The position numbers were made by a program, and so were the translations under genes. 16,666 nucleotides of DNA from a virus (Duplodnaviria; Heunggongvirae; Uroviricota; Caudoviricetes), in IMG/VR virus record IMGVR_UViG_2585427766_000008, positions 1-16,666 of that record. One strand, given 5' to 3'. Shown piece after piece: positions 1,053 through 16,666 of the stretch; within the stretch, counting starts at the first letter, position 1, and each line of letters opens with the position of its first letter. The notes below the pieces were generated by a model, which saw nothing but the letters and a program-made list of their open reading frames with translations, did no database searches and was not told where the DNA came from.

Positions 1053-1057
1053 CTGTA

Positions 1058-1566: not shown

Positions 1567-1572
1567 GTGATG

Positions 1573-1854
1573 TCAGCAAGTGCGAAACCCCTTGCAGTTA
1601 CGCAGGAAAGCGATGAGAAGCGTCTTTCCCTCAGATTTGCCGGTGCCGGAGAACCAGTGGTCGGGAGGCTCCCATGCTTCAATCAAATCCGCCAGTTTGC
1701 GGGCCTTTGAACGTGTGCAGTCAATCGGGTCATTGGTTTTACGGGTATTAAAAAGGGTTTCCACCCCCGGAATATCAAGGAGGGTAAACCACGTACCATT
1801 TGACATGCCCAGTGCCGCACATCGTCTTCCTTTATCCGTCAGTTCAACACTCAT
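1573..1854 (-). CDS. Hypothetical protein between tail tube and chaperone (positional analogue of Mu Y; function unknown)
   Basis: 93-aa ORF starting 2 nt after the tail tube stop, with a G-rich RBS-like tract upstream. I recognise no motif. An antisense ORF of similar length also covers this span. Confidence 0.35.
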   Translation of the reverse strand: MSVELTDKGRRCAALGMSNGTWFTLLDIPGVETLFNTRKTNDPIDCTRSKARKLADLIEAWEPPDHWFSGTGKSEGKTLLIAFLRNCKGFRTC

Positions 1855-1856
1855 CG

Positions 1857-2378: not shown

Positions 2379-3805
2379 CAGTTGCCCCCTTTCAGGGTTA
2401 ACAGGTATTCCGAGGTGATCTCAGTCTCAAACGTCAGTCGCTCCAGCGGCGGTGGTGGCGTATATTTGTAGCTCAGCAACAGGTGCCCGGCGGCCAGCTC
2501 CGTCTCCGGATTGCGGGCCGGATCAAACCAGCAACGGAAGCCCAGTACCGCACCATCACCAGTCATTTTGCGACCGTAGGCGTTGACCGACTCCGTCAGT
2601 GCATCAATCAGCGCCTGAGTAATCGGCATGTCGATGTACTGCTGGCTGAAATAACGAATGGACTCGTTGATCACATCACCGGTGCGGCGAACGTTCTCAA
2701 AGTTACGCATATGGGTGACCGTTGGCCATGCTGCCGTCCGGTTACCCCACAGACGAAGGCCGCTGCCGTAACTGCTGAATACCGTGGTGATCCCCTGTTC
2801 GTTAAGCAGGTTTACCTCACTCTGCGGGTCATCAATCATCGCGGACAGCTGGCGCTCCACGCCGGTGATCCCCAGAATCTCCTGATTGGAGGATGACCAC
2901 CAGTAGCCCTTGTCCAGATCGACTCTGGCACGCAGACCTGCTGCACGCTGGCTGAGCGGCTCCAGACGCTCTGTGTTTGTCACCGGGTCATATACCTTCA
3001 CATGCGGATAGCACAGACGGACGCGGTCGGAGCTGGTATTGAAGTTGATGGTGCCTTCCGGGCCACGACCTGCCAGAGCCTGTGCAAAGGTGGTACCGAC
3101 AGGCGCATCAATGTAGGTTACCGCGCCCAGCTTCTCTGCCATGGCGATAAGCTCAACTGCGACACTCTTCTGGGTGCAGAACACCGGCGCAATCAGAATT
3201 TTGGCGAAATAGCCGTACAGGTTGAAGCTGTCGTTAAGCAGCTTCATGCCGGTTCGGTTTCCGGCGCTGTTCACCCCGCCGATGATGTCCGCCGCAGTCA
3301 CCTTCGACGGGTCCGCGTACTCATAGCTCACCTTCACGCTGCCACCGGCCTCAATAGCCTTGCCCAGGTTCGTGAGCACACCCGCCTGCGCATCAACACG
3401 GTAGTCCGTGTTCGCCGTGTGGGTGGTGCTGCCTTCACTGTTTTTCACCACCACATTAGCGACAACCGGATGCGCCAGTCTGGCCTGCCCTGTCGATTTG
3501 TCAAAGGTAACCACCTCATCCTCGATCGCCGTTTTATGTTTCGCCGGGTCGAGGACGTTAATGACCAGAACGGTGCCTGCACCATGGTCATAAATCGCAT
3601 CCAGCGCCTGCGGAATGGTAAAGCCGGTGAACTGGCTGCCAAATGCCGCTGCGTCTTTCTCAGACAGGCACTGTACCAGCGTATTGACATCCCCCATCGG
3701 GGCGGTACCAATCAGGCCAATAACGGCAGATTTCACCGTTTTAACCGGGCGGGCTCCGTTTTCCACCTCAATGGTTTCGGGACCATGCAGATAGTTAGCT
3801 GCCAT
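2378..3805 (-). CDS. Contractile tail sheath protein (Mu gpL-like)
   Basis: 475-aa ORF. Its N-terminal region (VKTVKSAVIGLIGTAP...) and its size and position ahead of the tube gene are typical of myovirus sheath proteins. Confidence 0.85.
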   Translation of the reverse strand: MAANYLHGPETIEVENGARPVKTVKSAVIGLIGTAPMGDVNTLVQCLSEKDAAAFGSQFTGFTIPQALDAIYDHGAGTVLVINVLDPAKHKTAIEDEVVTFDKSTGQARLAHPVVANVVVKNSEGSTTHTANTDYRVDAQAGVLTNLGKAIEAGGSVKVSYEYADPSKVTAADIIGGVNSAGNRTGMKLLNDSFNLYGYFAKILIAPVFCTQKSVAVELIAMAEKLGAVTYIDAPVGTTFAQALAGRGPEGTINFNTSSDRVRLCYPHVKVYDPVTNTERLEPLSQRAAGLRARVDLDKGYWWSSSNQEILGITGVERQLSAMIDDPQSEVNLLNEQGITTVFSSYGSGLRLWGNRTAAWPTVTHMRNFENVRRTGDVINESIRYFSQQYIDMPITQALIDALTESVNAYGRKMTGDGAVLGFRCWFDPARNPETELAAGHLLLSYKYTPPPPLERLTFETEITSEYLLTLKGGN

Positions 3806-4049
3806 GGGCGTCCTCCGTTTTCACTTCGCTGTCACTGCTGCTTCTGCGCTTTGGTGACTGCACAGCCGGTGTGACGGCGGGGTTAGTATCTTCTGGTACC
3901 GGCGGCAGATGCTTCAGCGCCACCAGTACCTTCACGTAGTCATGCTCCTCCGGCAGGGAAACCGCCTTCCCCGGCCAGAGCAGGATTTCGGTTCCGTCCG
4001 ACAGCGTGACGCCGCTGGCCGGGCCGGAATAGCGGTATGCTTTCATCAC
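3795..4049 (-). CDS. Hypothetical small protein (head-tail region) with low-complexity Pro/Ser-rich C-terminus
   Basis: 84-aa ORF overlapping the neighbouring genes by a few nt on both sides; conserved position ahead of the sheath gene in Mu-like gene order. Confidence 0.4.
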   Translation of the reverse strand: MMKAYRYSGPASGVTLSDGTEILLWPGKAVSLPEEHDYVKVLVALKHLPPVPEDTNPAVTPAVQSPKRRSSSDSEVKTEDAHGS

Positions 4050-4510
4050 TCGCTTTCCTCATAGTTCACTTCGGTTAACAGCGGGCCGGACGGTAAATCG
4101 CTGTCTTCGATAAAGATGCTTTCAGTCGCGAAGTCGAGGGCGTATTGCCACAGCCCCCTGACTTCACCGATAAACACCTCGCGGGTCAGCCAGATACGGC
4201 GGCGGCAGCCGGGCGGGGTGTAGCCACCGAGAATGCGGCGGACAGCATCCAGGACATTAATCGCCCCTTTTTTACCGTTGAGCTGGCGGAAGACCACCGT
4301 GACGCAGAGCTGGATAGTCTGAGACTGGATCACCGCACCGGTATCATCCGGCCTGTCAAAGCGCGAACCGGCATAGCTCAGCAGCAACGCGCCAACCGGA
4401 TGGTTCAGGCGATATTCAGCCGGTTTCTCCGGGAAGTACTCCACCTGCAGTTGCGGCAGCTTCTCGCGTAACCGGGCCAGTACCGCATCAAGGACGGGCA
4501 GAACGTTCAT
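4046..4510 (-). CDS. Mu gp37-like protein (DUF1834-like; head completion / tail attachment, function unknown)
   Basis: 154-aa ORF in the conserved slot between the gp36-like gene and the sheath. Family assignment is from memory of Mu-like gene order, not verified. Confidence 0.5.
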   Translation of the reverse strand: MNVLPVLDAVLARLREKLPQLQVEYFPEKPAEYRLNHPVGALLLSYAGSRFDRPDDTGAVIQSQTIQLCVTVVFRQLNGKKGAINVLDAVRRILGGYTPPGCRRRIWLTREVFIGEVRGLWQYALDFATESIFIEDSDLPSGPLLTEVNYEESE

Positions 4511-4956
4511 CAGTATTTCTCCAGTAAACCGTCACGACCGCCGAAAGTGGCCGGGCGACTGCGTACACGAAACTCGCCAGGCTCAGGCACATCTTTCTGA
4601 GTGGACGGCAGCCCCAGCGTGAGCCTGTTATCACGTAACTCCCTGAGTTGCCGCAGCGCTTCTTTGTGGTCATCCTTCACCGTATCCGGGAGGTCACCTT
4701 CCGGGCGGCGGGCGTAGAGCCGGTAACGGACCAGCGTGATGGCAATGTCCCGCAGAACAGTCGGTATCTCTGCCAGTGGCAGGATATAGCGTCCGCGCAG
4801 ATGGGCATCAATCAGCTCGTCGGCATAGCGGATACAGCTGTCCACCACACGGGTATTCACTGTTGCAGGCGAGTCGAAGTCCATCTCTTCACTGGTGAGC
4901 TCGATAAGCGTCCGCTCCGGCACCTGCGCAAGCAAATCCTCCAGGGTGCAGTACAT
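4510..4956 (-). CDS. Mu gp36-like protein (DUF1320-like; putative head-tail connector component)
   Basis: The track ORF (4510-5118) overlaps the upstream gene by 160 nt. The internal ATG at 4954-4956 lies 1 nt after the upstream stop (TGAcATG) and gives a 148-aa protein starting MYCTLEDLL, which resembles DUF1320-family N-termini as I recall them. Confidence 0.55.
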   Translation of the reverse strand: MYCTLEDLLAQVPERTLIELTSEEMDFDSPATVNTRVVDSCIRYADELIDAHLRGRYILPLAEIPTVLRDIAITLVRYRLYARRPEGDLPDTVKDDHKEALRQLRELRDNRLTLGLPSTQKDVPEPGEFRVRSRPATFGGRDGLLEKY

Positions 4957-4957
4957 G

Positions 4958-5296
4958 TCACACCCCGCGCAGGATACGAATGACGTCGCCTTCACCCCCG
5001 GCTTCATCAAGTGCAATACCACAGGATTTACCGTCGCCGGACTGCGGCACGGCTCTGGCCTGAGCATCTGACTGAACAGCCACACCACGGCTGACAGCGG
5101 CCCCGGCCTCGACAGCAATAATGCCCAGAACGCTCACCGGCGTGCTGTCGCCGGTAACAGCATCCACTTCGGCAACCCCGAGCGCTGCGGCACCGGCTTT
5201 ACAGGGGGTATTATCTGCCCCGACAAAACGCTGCTGTGCCAGTGCTGCCCCTGCCGTTACGGTTGTGATCAGAATGACCTGCTGAGTGGTTCCCAT
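4958..5296 (-). CDS. Small Ala/Gly/Val-rich head-associated protein (possible decoration or cement-type protein)
   Basis: 112-aa ORF directly after the major head gene, in the position of Mu J-like or decoration proteins. Identity is uncertain. Confidence 0.45.
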   Translation of the reverse strand: MGTTQQVILITTVTAGAALAQQRFVGADNTPCKAGAAALGVAEVDAVTGDSTPVSVLGIIAVEAGAAVSRGVAVQSDAQARAVPQSGDGKSCGIALDEAGGEGDVIRILRGV

Positions 5297-5305
5297 AACG
5301 CCTCC

Positions 5306-6259
5306 TTATTTACTGATACCGGTAATGAGATACCCGGCATCGCCACCAACCACGGCGACTTTGTAGATATCGGTATAACGGCAGTACTTCACCTTGCCAC
5401 CGGCTCCGTCGTATTTGTCGGCAACAGGCATCCCCTTACGACGCAGGGTGTAGCCGAAGGACGGCTCGTTCTCGTCCGCGCTGTCCGCCCCCGGCTGCGG
5501 TTTGCCGACATAGTGCAGCATCAGATTGTCTCCCCAGATATCCGCCGGCACGCTGTTCTTATCCATTGCCGCTTTCATGGACGGCAGGGAGACTGGGGCA
5601 CCGATGACGATCTCTTCGATCTGAAAGAGGTCCTGCAGGATTTCTGTGGTGATGCGCTTGCGTTCGTTGGCTCCGATGGCGGCCTGAATCGCCGGGTGGA
5701 ACTTCAGCAGCGCCATCACGCCGGCCCCCATGGTCATCAGGTTAGGACGCAGCCCCGTGGCCGTACGGACCGCTTCCATACCGGCTTCAATCACCCCGAT
5801 GGGGTCCCCCTTACCACCGGCCCAGCGATCACTGGCTGTCAGTTTTTTGACGTGCCCGGTACGGTAGACCTTTTCATCCTGAGCCAGACGGGCAGCGATA
5901 AGTTCACGGCGCAGGTTCACGCCATTCGTGGCGCGACGGATGGCCTTGCTCTCTTCGTTAAACATGGACTCCGCCTGCTCGCGATAGTCCACCGGCGCAG
6001 CCAGATCGTGTTCACCCAGCACCAGGTCCAGCGTGCCTGTTTTTTCACGAACCAGAACATTGCTGTCCGCCCCGACGGCACGCTCGGTGTCATATTCCAC
6101 AAAGGCGGTTTTCCCGAAGGTCGGTACACGCACGCCTTCCTTGTCCGTCAGCACGACGGGGAAAATACGTTCGCCGATGAATGCGGCATTTTTATAGCCA
6201 CGGGCGATACTGGTCAGTACCGGATCAACGACACGTTTACCTTTTAAGTAATCAGACAT
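5306..6259 (-). CDS. Major head (capsid) subunit (Mu gpT-like)
   Basis: 317-aa ORF immediately after the I protease/scaffold gene; size and position match the Mu-type major head protein. Confidence 0.75.
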   Translation of the reverse strand: MSDYLKGKRVVDPVLTSIARGYKNAAFIGERIFPVVLTDKEGVRVPTFGKTAFVEYDTERAVGADSNVLVREKTGTLDLVLGEHDLAAPVDYREQAESMFNEESKAIRRATNGVNLRRELIAARLAQDEKVYRTGHVKKLTASDRWAGGKGDPIGVIEAGMEAVRTATGLRPNLMTMGAGVMALLKFHPAIQAAIGANERKRITTEILQDLFQIEEIVIGAPVSLPSMKAAMDKNSVPADIWGDNLMLHYVGKPQPGADSADENEPSFGYTLRRKGMPVADKYDGAGGKVKYCRYTDIYKVAVVGGDAGYLITGISK

Positions 6260-6273
6260 GCTCTCTCCTTAAA

Positions 6274-6741
6274 TTACAGGCAGCGTGCGACAGCAGCCTC
6301 ATAGCTGATGCCTTCTTTTTTGGACAGGGCCACTGCTTTCTGATGCAGGGCCAGACGCTCAGGATCGGCTTCCGCAAACTCTGCCACATCCACCTTCACC
6401 GTGTCGCCGACACGCTCTTTTGTGGCCTGTTCGGCGAAATTCATCACCGGCTCCCCGTCGGAGAGCAATGAACGAAAGGCGGTGGCCAGCGGTGTGCGGC
6501 TTTCCCCCTCAGCAAACTCCACCGGCTTGTCGCCACCGGCGACGGCATCCAGCAGGGCAACCACCACGGAGGAGGCGCGGGGAGCCAGACGGCCCTCTGC
6601 GACCAGTTTTTCTGCAAAGGCCACATTGTCCTTATGCAGTTGCTCCTGTCTGACCTGTGCATCACGCGCATCGCGATCAGCAGCCTGCTGCTTCAGGCGG
6701 CGGTTCTCCTCCTGAAGGGCTTCAATCTCTTCTTTTGTCAT
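6274..6741 (-). CDS. Candidate nested scaffold protein (Mu gpZ-like) from an in-frame internal start within the I gene
   Basis: In-frame ATG at 6739-6741 (residue 217 of the I ORF) preceded by GAGGA with a 7-nt spacer. It would give a 155-aa coiled-coil-rich product (MTKEEIEALQEENRRLKQ...). Confidence 0.4.
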   Translation of the reverse strand: MTKEEIEALQEENRRLKQQAADRDARDAQVRQEQLHKDNVAFAEKLVAEGRLAPRASSVVVALLDAVAGGDKPVEFAEGESRTPLATAFRSLLSDGEPVMNFAEQATKERVGDTVKVDVAEFAEADPERLALHQKAVALSKKEGISYEAAVARCL

Positions 6742-7389
6742 CGATGATTCCTCGTTACTTGCGGAAGACGGCACCTGGCCTGTCTCACTGAATTGCGCAC
6801 CTGCTGCATCCTGCGACGGTGTGTCGCGGTACGCCTCTTCGCGCAGATTGTTGAGCTGCCATTCCGGCAGGACTTTTTCTGCTTCGTCCAGACTGAAGCG
6901 GGCGATCAGAAAATCGCGCAGCTTTCCCCACAGGGAGGCATTCGTGATGGCCTGCCAGTCGGCGAACTCCACCACACCTTCTTCCTGCTCACTGAAGGAC
7001 ACCTGTTTCAGCCCCTTGACGGAAGGTGGCTGTGCCCCGAGAAAGCCCACATGGCGCAGGTAGAGCACGCCGGGCTTCGGATTGGACGGTGAATCCGGGA
7101 GGTAGAAAGAGGCGGACACTTTTTTGAATCGTCCGTCGGTGACCATCTCAGCAAACTGCGGGTCCAGCTGGGCAGGCTCTGCCATCAGATCGACGCCGCT
7201 GAGCGACAGGGCTTTCACCCAGCCCCACGCCGGGTCTTCCGTTCTGGGATGACCAATCACGAGTGGTGCTTCATGGACGGACGGGTCATAGGCTTTCACG
7301 CAGGCGGCAAGATCGTCTGGCGTGAACGGCAGTTTTTTGCCGTGCATATCGGTATGAGTACCGGCTTTAAAAATGTGAATGGCTGACAT
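6274..7389 (-). CDS. Head maturation protease / scaffold protein (Mu gpI-like)
   Basis: 371-aa ORF with a protease-like N-terminal region and an Ala/Glu/Arg-rich coiled-coil C-terminal third; it sits between G and the major head gene as in Mu. Confidence 0.8.
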   Translation of the reverse strand: MSAIHIFKAGTHTDMHGKKLPFTPDDLAACVKAYDPSVHEAPLVIGHPRTEDPAWGWVKALSLSGVDLMAEPAQLDPQFAEMVTDGRFKKVSASFYLPDSPSNPKPGVLYLRHVGFLGAQPPSVKGLKQVSFSEQEEGVVEFADWQAITNASLWGKLRDFLIARFSLDEAEKVLPEWQLNNLREEAYRDTPSQDAAGAQFSETGQVPSSASNEESSMTKEEIEALQEENRRLKQQAADRDARDAQVRQEQLHKDNVAFAEKLVAEGRLAPRASSVVVALLDAVAGGDKPVEFAEGESRTPLATAFRSLLSDGEPVMNFAEQATKERVGDTVKVDVAEFAEADPERLALHQKAVALSKKEGISYEAAVARCL

Positions 7390-7525
7390 TTTGCTGTCCC
7401 GCGTTATGTTGTCGGAGACAGTTTGTGAGAAATGCAGGCCCGGCGATTTTAATCTGCTTTAGAAAACATCAGGGGAGAAGGACAGGGAAAGCAATACGGT
7501 GAACCGGAGGCGGTTATAAAACAGA
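7390..7525 (-). promoter_or_regulatory. Candidate late promoter region upstream of the I gene (PI-like)
   Basis: 136 bp of non-coding sequence between a terminator-like hairpin and the I start. It contains a -10-like TAAAAT on the minus strand. Mu has a C-dependent promoter in front of I. No activator site could be identified by eye. Confidence 0.3.
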
Positions 7526-7557
7526 GGCTGTAAAGCCTTTATAAAGGTAATACAGCC
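7526..7557 (-). terminator. Candidate rho-independent terminator after gene G (end of the lys-to-G transcription unit)
   Basis: Stem GGCTGTA/TACAGCC (7526-7532 / 7551-7557) enclosing the perfect 12-bp palindrome CCTTTATAAAGG. On the minus strand it is followed directly by UCUGUUUUAUAA. Confidence 0.45.
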
Positions 7558-7603
7558 CCTCATTCGCTGGCAATGATAAATCACCCGCCTGAAGAGAGAA
7601 AAC

Positions 7604-8062
7604 TCAGCGACGGGCCGCTGATTCAAGATGGCGGACAATGGTATCGAGGATGGGGATTACCACTTCAGGCTGTAGTTCTCCATCCCCCGTCACCGGCAGG
7701 AACGGGCGGGCCGGAAGTTCAACAGACTCATTACGCCCCGTTTTACCCCCGAACTGGTGAATGGCACCGTAAACAACGTTGGTCCCCACAACAGCCTGCC
7801 GGTCGTCATGGTCGGTTGATACTGACCCCATCAGACGCCCGGTATCCTGCAGTGTCTGCCCGTCACGCTCTTCCGCTGCCAGCGAGGGCATCCACCCCGG
7901 ACGCCCCTCATCAAGAAAGTTAAACTGTGTTTCCGCCAGCAGGGTTCCGGCAATTTTGCGCATCGCGGGCTCCAGGTCTGTGGCAGCAAGATCCAGCGCA
8001 CGGAGGCTCCGGCGCAGGGATTTATCGTTAATGGTGATACTGACCAGGTTATCGGAAGCCAT
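7604..8062 (-). CDS. Virion morphogenesis protein (Mu gpG-like)
   Basis: 152-aa ORF starting 3 nt after the F gene stop; it contains an FNFLDEGRPGW-type segment and has the size and position of Mu G. Confidence 0.7.
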   Translation of the reverse strand: MASDNLVSITINDKSLRRSLRALDLAATDLEPAMRKIAGTLLAETQFNFLDEGRPGWMPSLAAEERDGQTLQDTGRLMGSVSTDHDDRQAVVGTNVVYGAIHQFGGKTGRNESVELPARPFLPVTGDGELQPEVVIPILDTIVRHLESAARR

Positions 8063-8064
8063 TG

Positions 8065-8886
8065 TTATCCTCTCAGTTCCTGTTGTGCCAGTGGCTGAAG
8101 CGTACCCTGATAGCGGGCCAGGTCGGGACGGTATGCTGCCCCCGGTGCATAAGACCAGCCGACGTCGGTGGTCACCTTCGTGGTGCCGGTATTAAAGGTG
8201 GCCACGTTCCGCATTTCGCCGGTTTTCTCTGAGACCAGTTTCAGTTCCTGGCCCATGGCAGAGCCGGAGCTGATAACCTTCAGGCCACGGGCACGTACAT
8301 CCGCCGCACTCAGGGCAATCACACTACAGCGGCAGCGCCAGCCGTTCGGCGGGTAAAATGCCTGCCAGAACGGGTCATCCCAGCGCAGCACCAGACCATG
8401 CAGCGCCAGATGGCTCCTGCGGGTATGGCTGTCGTTGATGCCGGTATACATCCAGTACGGCCTGTCGTCGACGTTTTCCATCTGTTCCGCCCAACGACCG
8501 GCGCTGTAGAGTACGGACATATTGGTGCGAAAGATGGTATCGAGCCGCCACGGACTGCCCTGCTGAATGGTGACTGGCTCACCCGTTACCGGGTCAGTCG
8601 TGTCACGTGGTCCCCACCATCCCTTACGCTTCAGCACCGGCTCCAGCTCCTGCCGGAACCAGCGATCGGTTTTTCCTTCATCGACAGCCTGCTGCAGTGC
8701 CCCGCGAATATCTTCCAGGATATCCAGGCGGGTCACTTTAGCAACGGTAAAGGCGCGGGCATGGGCCTCCTGCCACATTTCTTCCCAGTCCCAGGTAATC
8801 TGATACCCTTTGGACTTCAGGTAGTTGATTGCCCGCTTCGGGGGAAGCGTCATGCAGTACGCCAGTTCAGCCGTTGTCACGCTCAT
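8065..8886 (-). CDS. Head morphogenesis protein (Mu F-like)
   Basis: 273-aa ORF after the portal gene (20-nt overlap) carrying the HTRRSHLALHG...PPNGWRCRC motif characteristic of the Mu F / SPP1 gp7 family. Confidence 0.85.
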   Translation of the reverse strand: MSVTTAELAYCMTLPPKRAINYLKSKGYQITWDWEEMWQEAHARAFTVAKVTRLDILEDIRGALQQAVDEGKTDRWFRQELEPVLKRKGWWGPRDTTDPVTGEPVTIQQGSPWRLDTIFRTNMSVLYSAGRWAEQMENVDDRPYWMYTGINDSHTRRSHLALHGLVLRWDDPFWQAFYPPNGWRCRCSVIALSAADVRARGLKVISSGSAMGQELKLVSEKTGEMRNVATFNTGTTKVTTDVGWSYAPGAAYRPDLARYQGTLQPLAQQELRG

Positions 8887-10363
8887 GCAGACGCCCCCAG
8901 ATATTTGTCACAAAGAGAATGCGGGCCAGCCGCTCCTGCAGATCGTCCGTGTTCATCTGAGGGTAGAGCTCCGCCAGTTCGCCCAGCAGCTCAGACGGGT
9001 TAACCCCATTTTCGACCCGCCTGAACAGAGGTGCCAGGACGGGTTCCAGCGTGCCATTTAACGCGCCTCCGTTCATCAGAATGTCCAGCGCGTCGTCAAG
9101 CTGCTGCTGAGCCTGAATATCAGCATCAATCGCCTCGGCAAATGACAGCGGCAGCATGTTATTCTGTCGTTCCGACGGTGGTGTCTCGTCAATATCGCCG
9201 TCCTGCAGTTGGTACTCACGCTTGAAGTACTGCGGGGTCAGACGCAGACCCGCCCGGGTGAGTTTTTCGTCGCGGGTGGCACGGGTGTCATCAATGGCCT
9301 CCTGTTCCCACATGGCCCAGACCGGACACGGCACATCGCCGAAGTTCAGGGTGACCACCGTTCTGATGACCTGATTCACTGCCGCCTGAATGATGTCCGC
9401 ATCCGCATCGCGGATATCAGCCGTTACCTCCAGCCCGGCCTGTGCAGAGGCCTTGTTACTGTTCGCTTCCGTGGTCTGATTCTGACCGAGTAATGCAATG
9501 GAGATCTCACTGCGTGACAGTGTGATCAGCTCGCGGAATACCTCGCTGCTGTCCGCCTTACCATCCGCGGCTTTGAGTTCGATGCTGCTGTCATCGGGGA
9601 TGGCGGCCACCGCGTCCTCCACCATCTGCTCCATGGAGTCCAGCAGTTTTTCAATCTCTGCATCATTTGCACCCCTCGGGTGCTTACCGATCACCCACGG
9701 GGAGCCAAACTTTTCGGCAAAGCGGAGCCAGAATTTCATCCCGCCTTTCTTGAAGGCGACCGGCCAGAAGCACATGGACAGGTCCGGGAAACCGTAAGGA
9801 TTGTCATACGAGGCATCCTGTGCCGGCACCACGAATTTTGACGGTGACAGCAGCTCACCCTCCACACCCGCATCACGCGCCCGGAAGCGCAGGCAGTTGT
9901 CCGTATCAAACTGAAACCACTCAGGCGGTTTGCCGACAATATCCGTCACCGCCCACGACCTGACCGAACGGCCCCACATGATTTCACAGGGCTGATACCC
10001 GTAGAGCACGGCATCGCTCATTTCACCGATGATGCGGGACAGATCCAGATCGTCGAGCATGTCGCGGATGAAACGGAAGACCCGGGCAGAGGCGTGACCA
10101 CGCTCCAGTCCACGCTCCAGCGATTTAAGCGCTGCTTTACGTCTGCGGATACAGCCCCCGACCAGCGGGTCGGTGCGCAGTTCGCGGTAGATACGGATAT
10201 CCCGTCCCTGAGCCTTGAGAATGGGATCAGGATTGGGCAGATACATGCCCAGTCCGTAAAAGTCGATCGCGCGGCTGCGGGAGGCAATCTGCGCGGTCAG
10301 TGATTTCTGAGGCTCAGAAAAAGCAACAAATTCATCGGGTGAAACCCAGATACCCCTCGCCAT
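8867..10363 (-). CDS. Portal protein (Mu gp29-like, DUF935-type)
   Basis: 498-aa ORF directly after the large terminase (TGATG overlap at 10361-10365); size and gene order fit. Confidence 0.8.
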   Translation of the reverse strand: MARGIWVSPDEFVAFSEPQKSLTAQIASRSRAIDFYGLGMYLPNPDPILKAQGRDIRIYRELRTDPLVGGCIRRRKAALKSLERGLERGHASARVFRFIRDMLDDLDLSRIIGEMSDAVLYGYQPCEIMWGRSVRSWAVTDIVGKPPEWFQFDTDNCLRFRARDAGVEGELLSPSKFVVPAQDASYDNPYGFPDLSMCFWPVAFKKGGMKFWLRFAEKFGSPWVIGKHPRGANDAEIEKLLDSMEQMVEDAVAAIPDDSSIELKAADGKADSSEVFRELITLSRSEISIALLGQNQTTEANSNKASAQAGLEVTADIRDADADIIQAAVNQVIRTVVTLNFGDVPCPVWAMWEQEAIDDTRATRDEKLTRAGLRLTPQYFKREYQLQDGDIDETPPSERQNNMLPLSFAEAIDADIQAQQQLDDALDILMNGGALNGTLEPVLAPLFRRVENGVNPSELLGELAELYPQMNTDDLQERLARILFVTNIWGRLHERDNG

Positions 10364-11958
10364 CAGAATCCCTCCAGCATACGGGCCGCCTGACGACGAC
10401 GGCGTGAGCTTGCCTTCACCGGCCCTTTGTTAATTTCACGGCTGGCGAAATACGCCAGCGCCAGTGCGATGGCTGAATCCCCGTGGCGTTTACCACCGTC
10501 AGCCTTTGCTTTTGAGCGTTGCTCCGGTACGCGGGGGACACCGTTCACCACCTGAACGGCCCGCAGGTCATCCAGTGTGTCTTCATCCTTTGGTAAGTCC
10601 ACCAGGTTACCGTCTTCCAGTGCAGCTTTGACCGGAGGCATATGCTCCCGGTACCAGCCTTCGGTTGGCATCACCTGCTGAACCCGGCTGGAGCCGTAGC
10701 GCTGCATGGCGTATTCAGCCAGATAGGCACCATTACCACGGGCATCAAACGCTGCACCCAGCAGACCGGGCAGGCCATCCATCAGATACCAGGTGATTTG
10801 CTCCTGCTGTCTGAACGGCACGTTACGCAGCTCCAGTACGAATGGCACGCGTCGTACCAGGTTCTTCTCCTGCAGCAGGGGATAGTCCACCGACAAATCA
10901 CCGCTACGGCCAAAGTCGCGCCCCAGGAAAGAGCGGGCATCAGTGGGGAGTGCCTCCAGCAAGGGTTTCAGATACTCATCAAGCCAGTCCTGCGTCTCGC
11001 GGAAGCGAACCTCATCAGACAGCAGTTCATAACCTTCCTTGCAGGTCAGACGCAATACCGGCGTATCAGCGGACATGCGGGACTCTATCAGGGCACGGGA
11101 CAGCCAGGCACCGCCACCGTTGGCCGGAATACAGTCAAGCTCTTCGGATGCGCCGGCACCGTAGAATTTGTACACCGATGCCATCCAGGCCTGCTCGGAT
11201 GCCTCCGACCATTCCTTCCCGGTGCGCAGACAGACGCGCCGGAACAGCCCCTCAGATACGGCTTCCCGGAAAGTGATGCGATGTATGCTGCCTCCCTGAC
11301 GTCCGGCACGGATATCCCCGATAAGCGTATTGAACGGATTGTCGTCACCGTTATGGGTGGAGATAACGCGTACCTTTCCCCCCCAGATAAGCATCGCCAG
11401 CGCCGCTTTCAGCAGTTCGTCCAGTTGCTCATGGAACGCCGCTTCGTCGATAACAATAATACCCTGACGGCCACGCAGGTTAGACGGGCGGCTGGAGAGC
11501 GCAACAATACGAAAGCCGGAGTCAGGAAATTTGATGGTGTAAGTCCTGATGTGTTTGTCGTCGTCGTCCTCTTCCCAGAATCCTTCTTCAATTTCACTGG
11601 CCGCATAGTTGAATGCCCGTGCCCACATCGCACACGCCTGAATGTATTCGACGGTCATGTCCTGGTTATAAGCGATGTAATACACATTCATCCCGCCTGC
11701 TGGCGCAGAAGAGGCGGCGGTCAGTACGTTATCGGATGCCTCAGCCCATGTAATACCGGTACGACGGCTCTTTTCTATCACCTTAAGCGGAGAGGTGTCT
11801 GCCACCCAGCGCTGCTGGTAAGGCAACAGAACGGGAGGGGCATCCAGCGCCGAGGTATCAGGCAAAACGGGAGCAAGGTTATTCCTCCCGTCCATGGGAC
11901 TCATCCCTTCGGGGCCGCCGCCAGCGGCGTTTAAAATCACTCCGGATGATTTTGTCAT
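10363..11958 (-). CDS. Terminase large subunit (Mu gp28-like)
   Basis: 531-aa ORF with a Walker B-like GIIVIDEAAF segment. Its start overlaps the upstream gp27-like gene (ATGA at 11955-11958). Confidence 0.85.
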   Translation of the reverse strand: MTKSSGVILNAAGGGPEGMSPMDGRNNLAPVLPDTSALDAPPVLLPYQQRWVADTSPLKVIEKSRRTGITWAEASDNVLTAASSAPAGGMNVYYIAYNQDMTVEYIQACAMWARAFNYAASEIEEGFWEEDDDDKHIRTYTIKFPDSGFRIVALSSRPSNLRGRQGIIVIDEAAFHEQLDELLKAALAMLIWGGKVRVISTHNGDDNPFNTLIGDIRAGRQGGSIHRITFREAVSEGLFRRVCLRTGKEWSEASEQAWMASVYKFYGAGASEELDCIPANGGGAWLSRALIESRMSADTPVLRLTCKEGYELLSDEVRFRETQDWLDEYLKPLLEALPTDARSFLGRDFGRSGDLSVDYPLLQEKNLVRRVPFVLELRNVPFRQQEQITWYLMDGLPGLLGAAFDARGNGAYLAEYAMQRYGSSRVQQVMPTEGWYREHMPPVKAALEDGNLVDLPKDEDTLDDLRAVQVVNGVPRVPEQRSKAKADGGKRHGDSAIALALAYFASREINKGPVKASSRRRRQAARMLEGF

Positions 11959-12500
11959 GTGGCAATCCCCAGAATCTCGCGACGAAGCGCCTGTACTGCG
12001 TCGCTTGACAGTCCCCCCTTACGGGCAATTTTCTCGGCGTTGCTGGCTGCCTGCTGCGCTCTGGCCCGTACTTCAGACTGGAACTTTTTGAGGTTGACGG
12101 ACGCGCGGGACAGCGTAGCCACATTCTTCGCCACCTTCGACAGCAGGGCCACGCGTTCTTTAGGATCGACTTCACCTTCTTCCGCCTCCTGCAACTGGAC
12201 AATACTCTCGAACAGCTCGGTCTGAATAAGGGCTATCACAGCCTCCGAACGCGCATCCTGATCGTCTGCTGCGCCTTCGGTCAGCATGCGGGCCGCTTCT
12301 GTTGCCGCACGGATAGCACCATAGCGGCGCTCAATCTTCTGTCCATAGCGATGGATAGCGGATTTGCTGATGACGTACCCCCGCTCACGCAGCAGGGACT
12401 CCAGCTCGTTATACCCGCTGAAGCCGGATTCAGTCAGCGCCCGTTCAAGCCAGCGGCGCACGTCTTCCGGCAGCTTTTCTATTGTGCTGCGTCTGGCCAT
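11955..12500 (-). CDS. Mu gp27-like protein (DUF3486-type; putative small terminase / DNA-binding subunit)
   Basis: 181-aa ORF immediately upstream of the large terminase, with a basic N-terminus and a coiled-coil C-terminal half. Confidence 0.6.
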   Translation of the reverse strand: MARRSTIEKLPEDVRRWLERALTESGFSGYNELESLLRERGYVISKSAIHRYGQKIERRYGAIRAATEAARMLTEGAADDQDARSEAVIALIQTELFESIVQLQEAEEGEVDPKERVALLSKVAKNVATLSRASVNLKKFQSEVRARAQQAASNAEKIARKGGLSSDAVQALRREILGIAT

Positions 12501-12811
12501 TATTCACTCCAGTACTTTTCCGGGCGGGCAATACCCGGACCACATTCCACGGTGTATTCCACCAGGTCTACGCCGAGGCGGGTCAGGTCAGCAAACCAGT
12601 CGCCAGAAGGTTTTTTCTCCAGCTCAACCATTTTACGGTCAGCCAGATAATCCAGTTCGCGGCGCAGTTCCAGCGGTGTGGTGTCCGGGTAGATGGCGCG
12701 GGACACGTCCAGCAGCAACGTTTCACTGGCGGTGTAAGGGCGGGTTTTGTTCAGGGCAACCAGCAAACTCCAGCGCAGGGATTCGCGGCGTACCCGGGTA
12801 ATATCGACCAT
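12500..12811 (-). CDS. Hypothetical protein (Mu gp26 position)
   Basis: 103-aa ORF whose ends abut both neighbours; no recognisable motif. Confidence 0.4.
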   Translation of the reverse strand: MVDITRVRRESLRWSLLVALNKTRPYTASETLLLDVSRAIYPDTTPLELRRELDYLADRKMVELEKKPSGDWFADLTRLGVDLVEYTVECGPGIARPEKYWSE

Positions 12812-13137
12812 TATTGACCTCCGGTATTGCGGTACTGCTGTACCACTTCCAGTTTGTTATAAAGCGCGTCCAGTTTGGCCTCGATGACTGTCTGGCCACG
12901 GATATAATCCTCGCGACGGACATAATTCAGCGGTAAATCCGCTTTAAATCGCATAAATTCTTTTTCCAGCTCGCCCCAGTTGGAGGCGGACTGTTGCAGG
13001 GCCTGTTCAAGGGAGGCGAATCGTGCCGCCTGGCGTTCTTCTGTTTTACTGAACAACCATTTGGCGAGCCCTCCCACAAACCCCATGAAGGTGAGCAGAA
13101 AACTCACCACCGTCCAGAATTCAACCTGCAGTGTCAT
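12811..13137 (-). CDS. Small membrane protein with N-terminal TM helix and coiled-coil region (Mu gp25-like)
   Basis: 108-aa ORF with the hydrophobic N-terminal segment WTVVSFLLTFMGFVGGLAKWLF followed by charged coiled-coil-like sequence; it lies between the spanin pair and the packaging genes. Confidence 0.45.
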   Translation of the reverse strand: MTLQVEFWTVVSFLLTFMGFVGGLAKWLFSKTEERQAARFASLEQALQQSASNWGELEKEFMRFKADLPLNYVRREDYIRGQTVIEAKLDALYNKLEVVQQYRNTGGQ

Positions 13138-13784
13138 TTCTGTAATCCTTCCCGTTCATCCAGTAACGCGTTTATCTGGTTCCGCCAGCGACGACATTGT
13201 CCTGCGTTGTCGATGATGTTGGCGAGAACGTCACGCTGGGAGACACCCGAATCGCGTAACCGGGTGTCAGTGGTTTCAGGTTGCCCGGTCGCTGTGCCAG
13301 AGCGGGTGCCAGCGGCGGCAACTGAGTCTGAATGACCGGTGTCGACGGATGCGTTGTCATATCCGAGTGCGGCGTTGTACTGGCGCACGAAACCGCGAGT
13401 AAACACGCACTCAATGGGATGGCTCTTACCTTTTTCATCAATCCAGCGCTGTGTGACATCGTTAATTTGCCCCTGTAGTTGTTTGTTCCGGCTCTCCAGT
13501 TGAGCAATCTGCTCAAGATAACCGGCTTCAGCCCGCTGCCCGGCGGCCACCTGCTCCTGATACCGTCTGGCCCAGGCCCGCAGCGCAGCATTCTCAAGCG
13601 TTGCCTGCTCCGTTTTGTACGCGTCAAATGCTGACTGCAACTGACTGAGCGCGGTATCACCGTCACGCTTTGCAGAGTCATGACCACTTCTGTATCCCAT
13701 GGCATACAGGCCGACCAGAAAGGCATTGATAAGAATGGCCAGCAGAATGCCGCGCCACGGCAGCTTTTTAACCAGATGCCGCAC
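13134..13784 (-). CDS. i-spanin (Rz-like inner-membrane spanin component)
   Basis: N-terminal TM segment (ILLAILINAFLVGLYAMGY) followed by a long periplasmic coiled-coil region (Q/A/L/E-rich). The track ORF starts at 13886 and would overlap the endolysin by 119 nt; a GTG at 13782-13784 preceded by GGGGAGG is the more likely start. The start position was worked out by codon arithmetic from the track translation. Confidence 0.6.
   Translation of the reverse strand: MRHLVKKLPWRGILLAILINAFLVGLYAMGYRSGHDSAKRDGDTALSQLQSAFDAYKTEQATLENAALRAWARRYQEQVAAGQRAEAGYLEQIAQLESRNKQLQGQINDVTQRWIDEKGKSHPIECVFTRGFVRQYNAALGYDNASVDTGHSDSVAAAGTRSGTATGQPETTDTRLRDSGVSQRDVLANIIDNAGQCRRWRNQINALLDEREGLQK
13172..13438 (-). 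CDS. o-spanin (Rz1-like outer-membrane lipoprotein) embedded in the +1 frame of the i-spanin gene
   Basis: Internal ATG at residue 122 of the 13172-13801 track ORF gives an 88-aa product, MKKVRAIPLSACLLAVSC..., with a lipoprotein signal, a lipobox-like LAVSC and a Pro-rich mature region (PVIQTQLPPLAPALAQRPGNLKPLTPG). It lies entirely inside the i-spanin ORF. Confidence 0.65.
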   Translation of the reverse strand: MKKVRAIPLSACLLAVSCASTTPHSDMTTHPSTPVIQTQLPPLAPALAQRPGNLKPLTPGYAIRVSPSVTFSPTSSTTQDNVVAGGTR

Positions 13785-14502
13785 AACTGCTGCCTCCCCA
13801 TGTGAGATATCGCGGTGCCAGTTCGCGCAGGATGCGCTGCGGATAATGGCGGTTCTCCCGCCAGCTGGCCGCATTGCGTCCGGCATTCACCGTGGCGACA
13901 TGTCCGAACCAGCGGGTGCTGTCCAGACCTTTCTGTGATGCAAGCCGCCTGTCCCGTTGTACCCAGCCCAGACCACCGTTATAGCCCGACAGTGTCATGG
14001 CCATACGCTCGCAGTCACTGGCGGCGCTGACACGCTGCCACAGCCAGCGGTCATAGCTGACCAGCGCCCGGATAGCCCATGCCGGATTAAACGGCTCACG
14101 ACTGCTCAGCATCGGTATCAACTGGCTTATCCAGTCGGCAGTGGCAGGCATGAACTGCGCCAGTCCCTGAGCGCCAGCCGGCGAGATCGCATCAGGTCGC
14201 CAGCCGCTTTCCTGATGCAGTTGCGCGGCGAAATCGGCCACCGGCGCAGACAGTCCCCATTCAAGCCGGGCATTACGGATCACATCATCGCGATACTGCA
14301 GCGCAGCCTGCGGGGGCTGCGCTGCGCATGCCTGGCTGAAAAAGCCGCCACACCAGAGCAGCCAGACAATCACCAGGTTGCCAGCAAGCTGCCACCAGAA
14401 GCTGTATTTATCGTTACGTGGTTCTCCGTGTCTGATGGCGGTTACGCCCAGACCAAAGGCGAACAGAATAATGAGGGTGATTTGAGGCCAGTTCATGGTC
14501 AC
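13768..14502 (-). CDS. Endolysin, lytic transglycosylase type (SLT domain) with N-terminal membrane-anchor / SAR-like region
   Basis: 244-aa ORF containing the SLT catalytic-region motif (LHQESGWRPDAISPAGAQGLAQFMPATA). Two hydrophobic segments in the first ~60 residues. Overlaps the upstream membrane-protein gene by 4 nt. Confidence 0.8.
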   Translation of the reverse strand: MTMNWPQITLIILFAFGLGVTAIRHGEPRNDKYSFWWQLAGNLVIVWLLWCGGFFSQACAAQPPQAALQYRDDVIRNARLEWGLSAPVADFAAQLHQESGWRPDAISPAGAQGLAQFMPATADWISQLIPMLSSREPFNPAWAIRALVSYDRWLWQRVSAASDCERMAMTLSGYNGGLGWVQRDRRLASQKGLDSTRWFGHVATVNAGRNAASWRENRHYPQRILRELAPRYLTWGGSSCAASG

Positions 14503-14849
14503 AGTCCTGTTGCCACAGCCAGGCAGACCGCTGCAACAATCAGTGCACGGCGGATTAACGCAGCAGAAAACACCAGGTGAAGGCCGGTCTGTACCGGGAA
14601 ACGCCCTTCAGCCATCAGCCTGTCGTCATGTTTCAGGTACTGACCGGGACGGGCTTTGGGGAAGAGCGAACGGTCAAGCCAGTAACCCAGCACTGCTGCC
14701 AGCGTGATAAGTGCCAGCTTGTAGATCACAACAGGCAACTGCTGTGGCGAGACCAGAGCGATGATGCCCAGCAACAGCACTGAGGTCAGCAGCCAGCCGC
14801 TGAGGCGAGGTTTTTTAACAGGGGGAATGAATTTTTTCAGGTTTTTCAT
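14499..14849 (-). CDS. Putative holin / small membrane protein with three predicted TM helices
   Basis: The ATG at 14847-14849 is preceded by GAGGAG with a 6-nt spacer; the track's longer ORF starts at a GTG at 14882 with no RBS. The 116-aa product has three hydrophobic segments and sits first in the lysis cassette. Holin assignment is positional. Confidence 0.45.
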   Translation of the reverse strand: MKNLKKFIPPVKKPRLSGWLLTSVLLLGIIALVSPQQLPVVIYKLALITLAAVLGYWLDRSLFPKARPGQYLKHDDRLMAEGRFPVQTGLHLVFSAALIRRALIVAAVCLAVATGL

Positions 14850-14963
14850 GTGTGTCTCCTCGTTTGGTGGAGACAGCATCACAAATGTGGCGGGATACGG
14901 ATTTTAAACAGCGTTAATAGTGAAGATGTAAACGTGCACTGCATGATGACTTTGAAAGAACGA

Positions 14964-14991
14964 CCAGCCCGGTACCCGAACACCGGGCTGG
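14964..14991 (-). terminator. Inverted repeat hairpin (10-bp stem, 8-nt loop) in the lysis / methyltransferase intergenic region; candidate minus-strand terminator or regulator site
   Basis: CCAGCCCGGT (14964-14973) pairs perfectly with ACCGGGCTGG (14982-14991). On the minus strand it is followed by UCGUUCUUUCAAAG. Confidence 0.35.
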
Positions 14992-15037
14992 CCATCGCCC
15001 CACAGGAATGCGCTGTGAGCCGACCGAGGTTCAGTCA

Positions 15038-15096
15038 GTCTCGCGAGACCAGACTAGCCTGCCATATTTTTTATAATTGTAAAAGGCTTACAGATT
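15038..15096 (+). promoter_or_regulatory. Candidate promoter of the methyltransferase gene with an operator-like palindrome
   Basis: Perfect -10 hexamer TATAAT at 15072-15077, about 20 nt upstream of the ATG at 15097; AAAGG RBS-like element 10 nt before the start. A perfect 12-bp palindrome GTCTCGCGAGAC (15038-15049) sits where a -35 would be; no good -35 hexamer. Confidence 0.4.
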
Positions 15097-15867
15097 ATGA
15101 AAATGCAGACATTACCCATCGTTCCATGGATTGGTGGCAAACGCCGCCTTGCAAAACACATCCTGCCGCTGTTTCCGGCGCATGAATGTTATGTGGAGCC
15201 GTTTTGTGGGGCAGCAGCGCTCTATTTTCTTAAGGTACCCGGCAAGATCGAAGTCATTAATGATATCAACGGTGAACTGGTGAACCTGTATCGGGTGGTA
15301 AAACATCATCTGGAAGAATTTGTACGCCAGTTCAAATGGGCGCTGGTCAGCCGGCAGATCTACAAATGGCTGCAGATCACCCCGGAAGAAACACTGACGG
15401 ATATCCAGCGTGCAGCACGGTTCTACTACCTTCAGAAGCAGGCGTTTGGAGGCAAGGTGGCGGAGCACAGCTTTGGTACCTCCACCATATCCCCGCCACG
15501 CTTCAACCTGCTGCGTATTGAAGAAGAACTGTCAGCGGCACACCTGCGGCTTTCCAGAACGGTCATAGAACACATGGACTGGCAACAGTGCATAGAACGA
15601 TATGATCGCCCGCATACGTTGTTCTACTGTGACCCTCCATACTGGGGAACGGAAGGTTATGGTGTGGAGTTCGGACTAGAAAATTATGATCATATGGCAG
15701 ATTTAGCACGCAGGATCAAAGGGAAGATGATTATATCGGTGAACGATATCCCGGAAATGCGGCAGGCATTCAACGGTCTAAATATTCAGTCGGTTGATAT
15801 CAGCTACAACCTCAAGATCACTGGCAAATCCAGTCGCAAGAAGGAACTCATTATCCTCAACTTTTGA
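15097..15867 (+). CDS. DNA N6-adenine methyltransferase, D12 class (Dam-like), orphan
   Basis: 256-aa ORF with the N-terminal AdoMet-binding motif (PWIGGKRRLAKHILPLFP...YVEPFCGAAALYF) and the catalytic DPPY motif (FYCDPPYWGTEGYG). No restriction-endonuclease partner is visible in the window. Confidence 0.85.
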   Translation: MKMQTLPIVPWIGGKRRLAKHILPLFPAHECYVEPFCGAAALYFLKVPGKIEVINDINGELVNLYRVVKHHLEEFVRQFKWALVSRQIYKWLQITPEETLTDIQRAARFYYLQKQAFGGKVAEHSFGTSTISPPRFNLLRIEEELSAAHLRLSRTVIEHMDWQQCIERYDRPHTLFYCDPPYWGTEGYGVEFGLENYDHMADLARRIKGKMIISVNDIPEMRQAFNGLNIQSVDISYNLKITGKSSRKKELIILNF

Positions 15868-16231
15868 CCGAATAGTAAGACTTCATGCAGTGAATCAAGT
15901 ACTGCATGAAGTCAAGGGCTGGTTTTGTGTACCAAAAATAAACAGTGATAGCGGTAATAATTCCCATAACTAGAACACCACGTATAATCCAGAACGTACG
16001 TTTCTGCGTGTCTAGTCGCGCAGAAATACTGCTAAATACACCAGCCACGTCATCTTTAATGAAGGAATATTCCTTATTAATCTGTTTTTCTTTGTATTCA
16101 ATTTCTTCGCCTAAGGCCTTTATAGATTGCATCTGGTTCGAAAGTGCCAGCCAGATTAACGTTGCAGCAAAAATGCATCCCAGAAGAATTATTGTGTTTG
16201 TTATCCCTTGGCCTGACCATTTCGTAGCCAC
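15857..16231 (-). CDS. Hypothetical small membrane protein (two predicted TM helices) in AT-rich DNA
   Basis: 124-aa ORF with hydrophobic segments ITNTIILLGCIFAATLIWLAL and FWIIRGVLVMGIITAITVYFWY flanking a charged K/E-rich segment. It starts at a GTG with no convincing RBS, and its 3' end passes through the 13-bp hairpin and overlaps the methyltransferase stop. An alternative plus-strand ORF covers part of the same DNA. Confidence 0.35.
   Translation of the reverse strand: MATKWSGQGITNTIILLGCIFAATLIWLALSNQMQSIKALGEEIEYKEKQINKEYSFIKDDVAGVFSSISARLDTQKRTFWIIRGVLVMGIITAITVYFWYTKPALDFMQYLIHCMKSYYSVKS
15879..15913. terminator. Perfect 13-bp-stem hairpin downstream of the methyltransferase gene; candidate bidirectional terminator
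   Basis: GACTTCATGCAGT (15879-15891) pairs with ACTGCATGAAGTC (15901-15913) around a 9-nt loop. It starts 12 nt after the methyltransferase stop. There is a U-rich tract a few nt downstream on the plus strand and a partly U-rich tract on the minus strand. Confidence 0.4.
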
Positions 16232-16303
16232 TTTGAATTGGGTAGCTACGATAACAGAGGCAACAGGAATGCCAAGTATATGGTTCTGGATATCTGAAAA
16301 CGC

Positions 16304-16666
16304 GGTAATGACTCCAACTTATTGATAGTGTTTTATGTTCAGATAATGCCCGATGACTTTGTCATGCAGCTCCACCGATTTTGAGAACGACAGCGACTTC
16401 CGTCCCAGCCGTGCCAGGTGCTGCCTCAGATTCAGGTTATGCCGCTCAATTCGCTGCGTATATCGCTTGCTGATTACGTGCAGCTTTCCCTTCAGGCGGG
16501 ATTCATACAGCGGCCAGCCATCCGTCATCCATATCACCACGTCAAAGGGTGACAGCAGGCTCATAAGACGCCCCAGCGTCGCCATAGTGCGTTCACCGAA
16601 TACGTGCGCAACAACCGTCTTCCGGAGACTGTCATACGCGTAAAACAGCCAGCGCTGGCGCGATTT
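16304..16666 (-). mobile_element. IS1, partial (terminal inverted repeat plus 3' part of insB; element continues beyond the window end)
   Basis: The plus strand from 16304 reads GGTAATGACTCCAACTTATTGATAGTGTTTTATGTTCAG..., the reverse complement of the canonical IS1 end, followed by sequence encoding the canonical InsB C-terminus. Confidence 0.9.
16319..16666 (-). CDS. insB: IS1 transposase InsB (InsAB' C-terminal portion); 5' end outside window
   Basis: The translation ends ...[88 protein letters not shown], matching IS1 InsB as I recall it. The frame stays open upstream to the window edge (116 codons, 16319-16666). Confidence 0.9.

Follow-up and report, generated by a model that had tools for sequence, protein, structure and literature searches.

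The question raised by the right-hand end of this viral stretch is what the phage keeps between its lysis genes and the insertion sequence IS1. The stretch, called the window from here on, comprises positions 1 to 16,666 of IMG/VR virus record IMGVR_UViG_2585427766_000008 (Caudoviricetes), and the interval in question runs from 14883 to 16303. A sequence-only reading, made by a model, saw there an adenine methyltransferase (Dam) with its own promoter and operator, followed by an AT-rich segment with a 124-amino-acid (124-aa) membrane protein, and proposed that the two were an acquired cassette or possibly a non-functional remnant. Found in the interval are an ordinary orphan phage Dam and the 3′ third, presumably dead, of a predicted abortive-infection effector gene that has been cut by IS1, the last of those proposals being what the window actually contains. 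The explanation as a whole, which we regard as quite probable, is that a BcepMu-type prophage with a core Dam carried a module made of a nucleoid-associated protein (NAP) as sensor and a membrane protein as effector, and that this module was broken by IS1.

It is clear that the 124-aa open reading frame (ORF) is not a gene. From 2400 to 16303 the window is 99.5% identical to intact BcepMu-type E. coli prophages, and a megablast search with 14400-16303 matched 18 complete E. coli chromosomes at 99-100% identity and a 19th at 87%, with all 19 matches ending exactly at the IS1 start. The frame contains no stop between the ORF and the edge of IS1 (16303), and in strain RIVM_C036569 (locus L001) the same frame encodes a 401-aa hypothetical protein, WP_001007985.1, named X here. 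In the intact relatives the "124-aa ORF" corresponds to codons 278-401 of this gene, and what is left of X in the window is 100% identical to the intact gene up to 16303. The ORF and the two hydrophobic helices that the sequence-only reading described do therefore exist, but as the 3′ third of X.

The IS1 boundary had been correctly recognized. A pairwise alignment of the window with the intact locus breaks between 16303 and 16304, at the start of the right inverted repeat (IRR) of IS1, GGTAATGACTCC..., and the sequence from 16304 on contains the 3′ end of insB (PF03400, E 8.5e-66); the IS1 part of the query has matches in ~9,500 E. coli records. The insertion point lies after codon 256 of X, with codons 254-401 kept in the window. 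The other side of the event is seen in WP_249402568.1, an E. coli protein of 264 aa found on 49 contigs (strain 5-172-05_S3_C3 is one of its carriers), which consists of X residues 1-256 (...KAFS) followed by GDAANLLI*, and this tail is the translation of GCGTTTTCA and then of the IS1 left inverted repeat (IRL). The left-repeat sequence matches annotated IS1 copies in ~9,300 records. From WP_249402568.1 together with the window, a 9-bp target-site duplication, GCGTTTTCA, is deduced, with which the N-side flank ends and the C-side flank begins, and the event reads as a simple insertion with the canonical 9-bp duplication.

Both halves of the cut gene are also found in draft assemblies, where N-terminal X partials with a length of 255 aa and C-terminal ones with a length of 146/147 aa share a locus-tag prefix (e.g., ACX6WK), and the contigs that carry them end at the very same IS1 insertion site. 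In the drafts with this breakpoint the NAP gene, the repressor and the early operon are found beyond the break. These assemblies suggest that the window originates from a strain like them, in which the NAP gene would lie on the far side of IS1 together with X codons 1-256.

The remaining codons 254-401 have neither a promoter nor a ribosome-binding site of their own. No Shine-Dalgarno sequence is found before the GTG at 16231, which is the first in-frame start of the remnant, and the next in-frame ATG is codon 311, within the first membrane helix. The function of X would be lost in the window. The remnant converges with dam and reaches 11 nt across the stop of that gene, and transcription of the IS1 transposase is directed at the remnant. 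The insB TAA (16319-16321) is in the frame of the X remnant, with five inverted-repeat sense codons between, and read-through of this stop or a suppressor would join the transposase to the membrane domain, which is probably meaningless.

In the intact relatives X is the second gene of a pair. In RIVM_C036569 a 335-aa NAP of the NA37/YejK family (WP_000003711.1; PF04245, E 1e-80; YejK structure 9be2, E 7e-30) is encoded just ahead of X, at a distance of 2 nt, and upstream of the NAP gene there is a CI-type repressor gene, with no terminator-like site between. A database search returned 93 X homologues of ~400 aa across proteobacteria, and family members of ~124 aa were not found except as fragment calls at contig ends. 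Synteny was followed in a sample of one genome per species, with 59 genome loci containing an X relative and 3 phage records (62 in all). In 56 of the 59 genome loci and in all three phage loci (Sinorhizobium phi2LM21, an Acinetobacter prophage and Klebsiella Kp4865-4) the gene that directly precedes X, in the same orientation, is an NA37 gene, and the NAP-then-X order is spread over alpha-, beta- and gamma-proteobacteria. The three genome loci without an NA37 gene contain C-terminal-half-only variants from Cupriavidus (L052-L054, 6001-6606), which cover X residues 191-392 at 44% identity, one of them on a plasmid contig, and may be stand-alone relatives of the membrane domain.

Lambdoid E. 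coli prophages (L070-L072, 3600-5804) carry a 40%-identical X together with a NAP in the moron slot between the Q antiterminator and the holin. Given the synteny in the 59 genome and 3 phage loci and this lambdoid copy, NAP and X form a module of two genes that go together obligatorily and are carried around by phages as cargo. The pairing of the membrane ORF with Dam in the sequence-only reading did not hold, given that the true partner is the YejK-like NAP gene beyond IS1. The lambdoid X homologue is annotated with 267 aa, and tblastn similarity runs ~60 codons further upstream; its start is probably misannotated, or the gene is damaged. Among 5,426 complete E. coli genomes the intact module is rare: 19 carry it, each time undamaged and each time in this prophage. 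In these 19 carrier genomes it is located at very different chromosome coordinates, as random transposition predicts.

The base composition of the locus agrees in part with what had been described as an AT-rich segment of ~430 bp. The drop in GC content is real (0.38-0.39 over ~15900-16350, versus 0.55-0.63 in phage late genes), but the segment is only the end of a low-GC block of ~2.7 kb that takes in X, the NAP gene and the repressor, with 0.405, 0.427 and 0.414, respectively. The late genes have a GC content of 0.58, the early genes of 0.54 and dam of 0.49.

X has no Pfam domain and matches phrog_5023 over its full length (E 6e-143). Its layout consists of an alpha/beta domain from residue 1 to ~210, predicted to be cytoplasmic, a long stalk helix at 213-273 and two long helices with hydrophobic stretches, which make up a C-terminal membrane hairpin, and the AlphaFold2 (AF2) model has a mean predicted local distance difference test score (pLDDT) of 81.8. 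The N-domain has a pI of 5.0 and a net charge of -11 (family median -8, range -16 to -2), and the C-domain, with the hydrophobic helices, a pI of 9.1. The columns that are invariant in 34 homologues cluster at X ~231-310, at the junction of stalk and membrane, and include L263, I265, P266, A268, Q275 and K277. The analysis supplies an alignment of the family and an effector model of good confidence, and the invariant residues could guide mutagenesis on the activation of the effector by the NAP. Kinship of the membrane domain with KwaA of the Kiwa system was considered on one weak PADLOC match (E 8e-5, X residues 262-394) and rejected, as only 3 of the 34 family members match and none of the family profile or fold searches returns it; the match is an effect of transmembrane (TM) helix composition.

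The identification of the methyltransferase as a D12-class enzyme was borne out. PF02086 (E 7e-28, 98.4 bits versus a cut-off of 22) and TIGR00571 (116.9 bits versus 114.85) are both above their cut-offs, and the DPPY motif is present at 15631-15642. Its relatives among solved structures are DpnM and E. coli Dam (E 5e-17 to 1e-14), and these closest solved relatives are GATC enzymes. Homologues occur in 744 phage records. The Dams of Klebsiella phage KP12 and of the Escherichia phages PhiKM and Phi06_2974 B are 88-92% identical to it, that of the transposable Pseudomonas phage B3 is 66% identical, and gp27 of Burkholderia phage phiE125 is 65% identical. Dam occupies the same holin-repressor interval in RIVM_C036569, in the prophage of strain M114, in PhiKM and in KP12, and in the last three it is present with NAP and X absent. 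No nuclease gene was found near dam in these four, where it is bordered by the holin gene, by small genes of hypothetical proteins, by NAP/X and by the repressor gene, in agreement with the earlier remark that a cognate nuclease is lacking.

By this distribution Dam is an ordinary orphan phage Dam and a core gene of the phage group, the role of which is most likely anti-restriction or epigenetic marking of phage DNA. The idea of an acquired accessory cassette is right for the AT-rich segment, which is acquired cargo, but not for Dam, which is core and sits in the same interval in cargo-free phages. An ordinary phage Dam at an unchanged position in relatives is what the sequence-only reading itself had named among the observations that would refute it. 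Dam was also considered as a part of the NAP-X module and rejected, given that it directly adjoins X in only 3 of the 62 X loci and is present without X in sibling phages. Dam and X are neighbors in the 19 E. coli genomes, in Mixta, in Brenneria and in a Sinorhizobium phage. In the latter, phi2LM21 (L003 628-3718), an unrelated phage of alpha-proteobacteria, NAP and X are followed, as in E. coli, by a convergent adenine methyltransferase that is 44% identical to the Dam of the window, which may be a coincidence or an old three-gene block.

The presence of Dam in the interval of PhiKM, KP12 and M114 without NAP-X means that two slots for accessory cargo flank the conserved dam between the lysis genes and the repressor. 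The holin-dam slot contains three small genes in M114, at least two annotated small genes in PhiKM and one 188-aa gene in KP12, and the dam-repressor slot contains NAP and X in RIVM_C036569 and a 177-aa gene in KP12 (slot coordinates: L002 8450-10093; L068, PhiKM, 2359-3913; L069, KP12, 3815-6388; L001 13458-15673). The carrier is a BcepMu-type transposable prophage: a Mu Gp27 domain is found in the window, and PhiKM, a close relative, is classified as Bcepmuvirus. The gene map of RIVM_C036569 shows the full layout of this type, with Mu-like late genes and with an early operon (helix-turn-helix protein, DUF3102, rve transposase, ExeA ATPase, Gam ... Mor) that points from the repressor to the far end of the prophage, away from the late genes. 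The sequence-only reading had noted the lack of a late activator and middle genes upstream of the lysis genes, and this apparent absence reflects the genome plan of the BcepMu type. The end of the RIVM_C036569 prophage past Mor (L001 24262-24520) adjoins a 63-bp hycH pseudogene fragment and then hyfR, and the prophage seems to be inserted within or next to the formate hydrogenlyase genes.

With regard to what the intact pair does, two studies describe E. coli systems of comparable composition. In the PANGU preprint (Li et al., bioRxiv 10.64898/2026.04.06.716658), YejK-like NAP sensors leave the nucleoid when phage nucleases degrade the host DNA, and then activate an effector. Type II PANGU consists of the NAP Pag2A and of Pag2B, which has an acidic N-terminal DNA-mimic domain and a C-terminal TM domain; the E. 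coli operon protects against T4, needs both genes and is escaped through denA mutations (10.64898/2026.04.06.716658). In DefensePredictor (Science 2026, PMC13092281), the validated system DS-1 is formed by a YejK-domain protein and a 404-aa partner with two TM helices, and originates from an E. coli isolate (assembly GCF_003886375.1; working ID D390; WP_000355468.1 and WP_000150292.1). These likenesses, although drawn from architecture and remote similarity, point to the intact NAP-X pair being a diverged member of a family of NAP-sensor and membrane-effector defense systems, which is part of the explanation regarded above as quite probable. The sequence-only reading, which had suggested a membrane effector or an abortive-infection type of product, was in this respect right in spirit.

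The mechanism that the pair would follow is borrowed step by step from the PANGU preprint (10.64898/2026.04.06.716658), and its defense function, like the mechanism, would hold by analogy. The NAP would be bound to the nucleoid until an infecting phage degrades the host DNA and thereby releases it; the freed NAP would bind the DNA-mimicking N-domain of X, and the membrane domain of X would then kill or arrest the cell. IS1, inserted after codon 256, would separate the NAP-binding N-domain from the membrane domain.

Several observations weigh against this explanation. The evidence for PANGU comes from a preprint, and the pair is likened to Pag2A/Pag2B of PANGU-Ecu by its architecture. DS-1 is represented in NCBIfam by the equivalog models NF053868 (DS1_1, cut-off 330 bits) and NF053869, DS1_2_antiphage (cut-off 315 bits), and both proteins score far below them, the NAP with 63.7 bits (E 1.4e-17) against the former and X with 75.9 bits (E 3e-21) against the latter. 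No solved structure that specifically resembles X was found in PDB profile or fold searches, and the acidity of the N-domain is only moderate, with DNA mimicry as a candidate property. Finally, the IS1 junction was found neither from its C-side nor from its N-side in the 5,426 complete E. coli genomes, nor in the GTDB species representatives. On the other side, hhalign aligns the X family with DS-1B over 291 columns (96% probability, E 4e-9, 22% identity), and BLASTP gives 23% identity between the NAP and DS-1A (E 8e-9). With a score below the NF053869 cut-off and a remote homology in hhalign, X ranks by profile comparison as a remote homologue of DS-1B, a relative and not an equivalog, and at 22% identity its function could have diverged.

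Other explanations were considered for the remnant and for the pair. The original proposal, that a stand-alone two-helix protein of 124 aa was acquired with Dam as one cassette for superinfection exclusion, abortive infection or a toxin-like function, can point to an ORF that exists mechanically with its two hydrophobic helices, and to the convergence of Dam and X, with an 11-nt overlap, and their being neighbors elsewhere. Nonetheless, the frame runs into the 401-aa gene in every intact relative, no family member of ~124 aa was found other than fragment calls at contig ends, the GTG lacks a Shine-Dalgarno sequence, and the supposed cassette falls apart elsewhere, with Dam lacking X in PhiKM, KP12 and M114 and X lacking an adjacent Dam in 59 of the 62 loci; the proposal is largely refuted and highly improbable. 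It is also very unlikely that the remnant is active as a free membrane domain, made by read-through from the IS1 promoter and internal initiation, and acting, once relieved of its regulatory N-domain, as a toxin at low level or as an exclusion factor, or else as a dominant-negative fragment. The orientation of insAB, transcribed towards the remnant with its stop codon in the same frame, would allow this, and no difference from the intact gene has arisen in the remnant (100% identity), which keeps the most conserved segment and both membrane helices. However, such identity is equally consistent with a recent insertion, the transcription of the IS1 transposase is known to be weak, and the first start after the insB stop is the GTG without a ribosome-binding site, followed only by the ATG inside helix 1.

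For the intact pair, the alternative is that it serves the phage and not defense, by tethering or organizing DNA at the membrane, by modulating lysogeny or transposition targets, or by silencing AT-rich phage genes, as NAPs encoded on plasmids do. Such a service is compatible with the location of the pair, which follows the repressor immediately and is not separated from it by a terminator; NdpA-like NAPs on mobile elements, such as Pnd of pCAR1, have regulatory roles, and the homology to the validated DS-1 is remote. This alternative is nevertheless unlikely, given that the pair is found in classic moron slots of unrelated phages (the lambdoid Q-holin slot; Sinorhizobium and Acinetobacter phages), that two independent studies found defense by E. 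coli pairs of a NAP and a TM protein, and that the pair is missing from sibling phages of the same type and is therefore dispensable cargo. A quite improbable idea is that the module conflicts with its own carrier: induction of a Mu-like prophage, with replicative transposition and late breakdown of host DNA, would release the NAP and fire the effector. If this were true, the module would be tolerated only as a guard of the lysogeny phase, transcribed with the repressor, and the IS1 knock-outs between N-domain and membrane domain, seen in many draft assemblies, would be selected and not accidental. In a weaker variant of this idea, the freed membrane domain would retain some activity.

The reading preferred here, a NAP-sensor and membrane-effector module broken by IS1 beside a core Dam, removes a false lead, in that the window holds no uncharacterized small membrane protein and no cassette of Dam plus effector. 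It also shows this putative defense family, akin to PANGU type II and DS-1, as cargo in prophages of unrelated phages, between dam and repressor in the BcepMu type and between Q and holin in the lambdoid ones, and provides a natural IS1 knock-out allele that parts the two domains of the effector.

The features of the interval and of its edges are collected in Table 1.

Table 1. Features between the lysis genes and the end of the window (positions in the window; strand. means none assigned).
Feature	Position	Strand	Basis
Holin, first lysis/late gene, left edge of the variable interval	14499..14882	-	PF13272 Holin_2-3, E 6e-41; putative holin in relatives
Conserved structured non-coding element, ~125 nt, between holin and dam	14945..15070	-	Folding and six-phage alignment
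Orphan Dam-family N6-adenine DNA methyltransferase, 256 aa, D12 class	15097..15867	+	PF02086, TIGR00571
X 3′ remnant, codons 254-401 and stop (Pag2B-like, DS-1B-like)	15857..16303	-	Identity to WP_001007985.1
Mechanical 124-aa ORF inside the X remnant	15857..16231	-	ORF listing
X codons 356-378, predicted membrane helix 2 of the remnant	15929..15997	-	Kyte-Doolittle maximum 1.95; inside AF2 helix 333-378
X codons 285-311, predicted membrane helix 1 of the remnant	16130..16210	-	Kyte-Doolittle maximum 2.33; inside AF2 helix 284-331
X codons 262-280, weakly hydrophobic helix (ILGIPVASVIVATQFKVAT)	16223..16279	-	Hydropathy
IS1 target-site duplication, one copy	16295..16303	.	GCGTTTTCA on the minus strand; flank after IS1 begins GCGTTTTCAGAT
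IS1 right-end (IRR) part and 3′ part of insB, running off the window	16304..16666	-	PF03400 DDE_Tnp_IS1, E 8.5e-66

The non-coding block between holin and dam travels with dam in all relatives, and a scan of the whole window against Rfam gave no family at gathering score. The palindrome in it that had been described as operator-like is a perfect inverted repeat of 10 bp (14964-14973 / 14982-14991, 100% complementary), but a terminator hairpin on the opposite strand fits better. The minus-strand RNA folds with -57 kcal/mol (z = -4.35; 0 of 200 shuffles as good), and the consensus fold of six phages reaches -53.8 kcal/mol with 9 compensated pairs on the minus strand versus -42.2 with 5 on the plus strand; two relatives keep a pair only as a minus-strand G-U. 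At its end the element has a 13-bp hairpin (14964-14991) and then UCGUUCUUU; this has the look of an intrinsic minus-strand terminator facing the lysis genes, not of an operator. Such a terminator might stop read-through from the repressor operon that crosses dam in antisense, insulating the lysis genes. Alternatively, the hairpin might end a short RNA begun at a promoter-like site, TTTTCA-16-TACAAT at 15103..15076 (-), which is located before the element, and the element could be a short terminated transcript or serve the late/lysis operon as a leader (compare lambda PR'-tR').

The promoter that had been assigned to dam, TATAAT at 15072-15077, was rejected: there is no usable -35, it is 20 nt from the ATG, and it is not conserved, with TAATAAT, CATTGAT and CGATAAA as its counterparts in relatives. 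The idea that a small ORF, Com-like or of another kind, precedes dam was also rejected: Brenneria has an indel of 1 nt there, and the substitutions restore RNA pairing instead of keeping codons intact.

When compared with known systems, Dam resembles other phage orphan Dams (B3, phiE125 gp27; E. coli Dam/DpnM fold) in its D12 class, its DPPY motif and the lack of a cognate nuclease. It differs from that of phage B3, where the annotation has a Com-like translational regulator ORF upstream; none is seen here, and a structured non-coding element is found instead. The event that cut X has the marks of IS1 insertional inactivation, namely an inverted repeat at the junction, a 9-bp duplication and draft contigs broken at the site, with nothing unusual about it. 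Kiwa, which also combines a membrane protein (the sensor KwaA) with a DNA-binding protein (the effector KwaB), is a loose analogy, with the gene order and the roles reversed relative to NAP-X, and X does not belong to it. DS-1 is closer, given that a NAP is followed by a partner of ~400 aa with C-terminal TM helices and that the motifs FS(Y/V)xK and IP(V/G)A are common to both; the difference is that DS-1A (391 aa) has an N-terminal zinc-ribbon extension, which the 335-aa NAP does not have.

Type II PANGU differs in its setting, since here the pair is prophage cargo next to a BcepMu-type repressor and the preprint never mentions prophages, and in that the effector gene in the window is split by IS1 and the system presumably non-functional. 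Its operon definition places the NAP and effector genes <40 bp apart; they are separated by 2 nt in the intact relatives, and in the case of the window the NAP gene would lie beyond IS1, outside it. The C-terminal TM domain of the definition is found in X as hydrophobic helices at 285-311 and 356-378, with a weaker one at 262-280. Type II PANGU is, like the pair, present in E. coli and spread across phyla by horizontal transfer, and in both the NAP gene comes first, with directly downstream an effector that combines an acidic N-terminal domain with a C-terminal TM domain.

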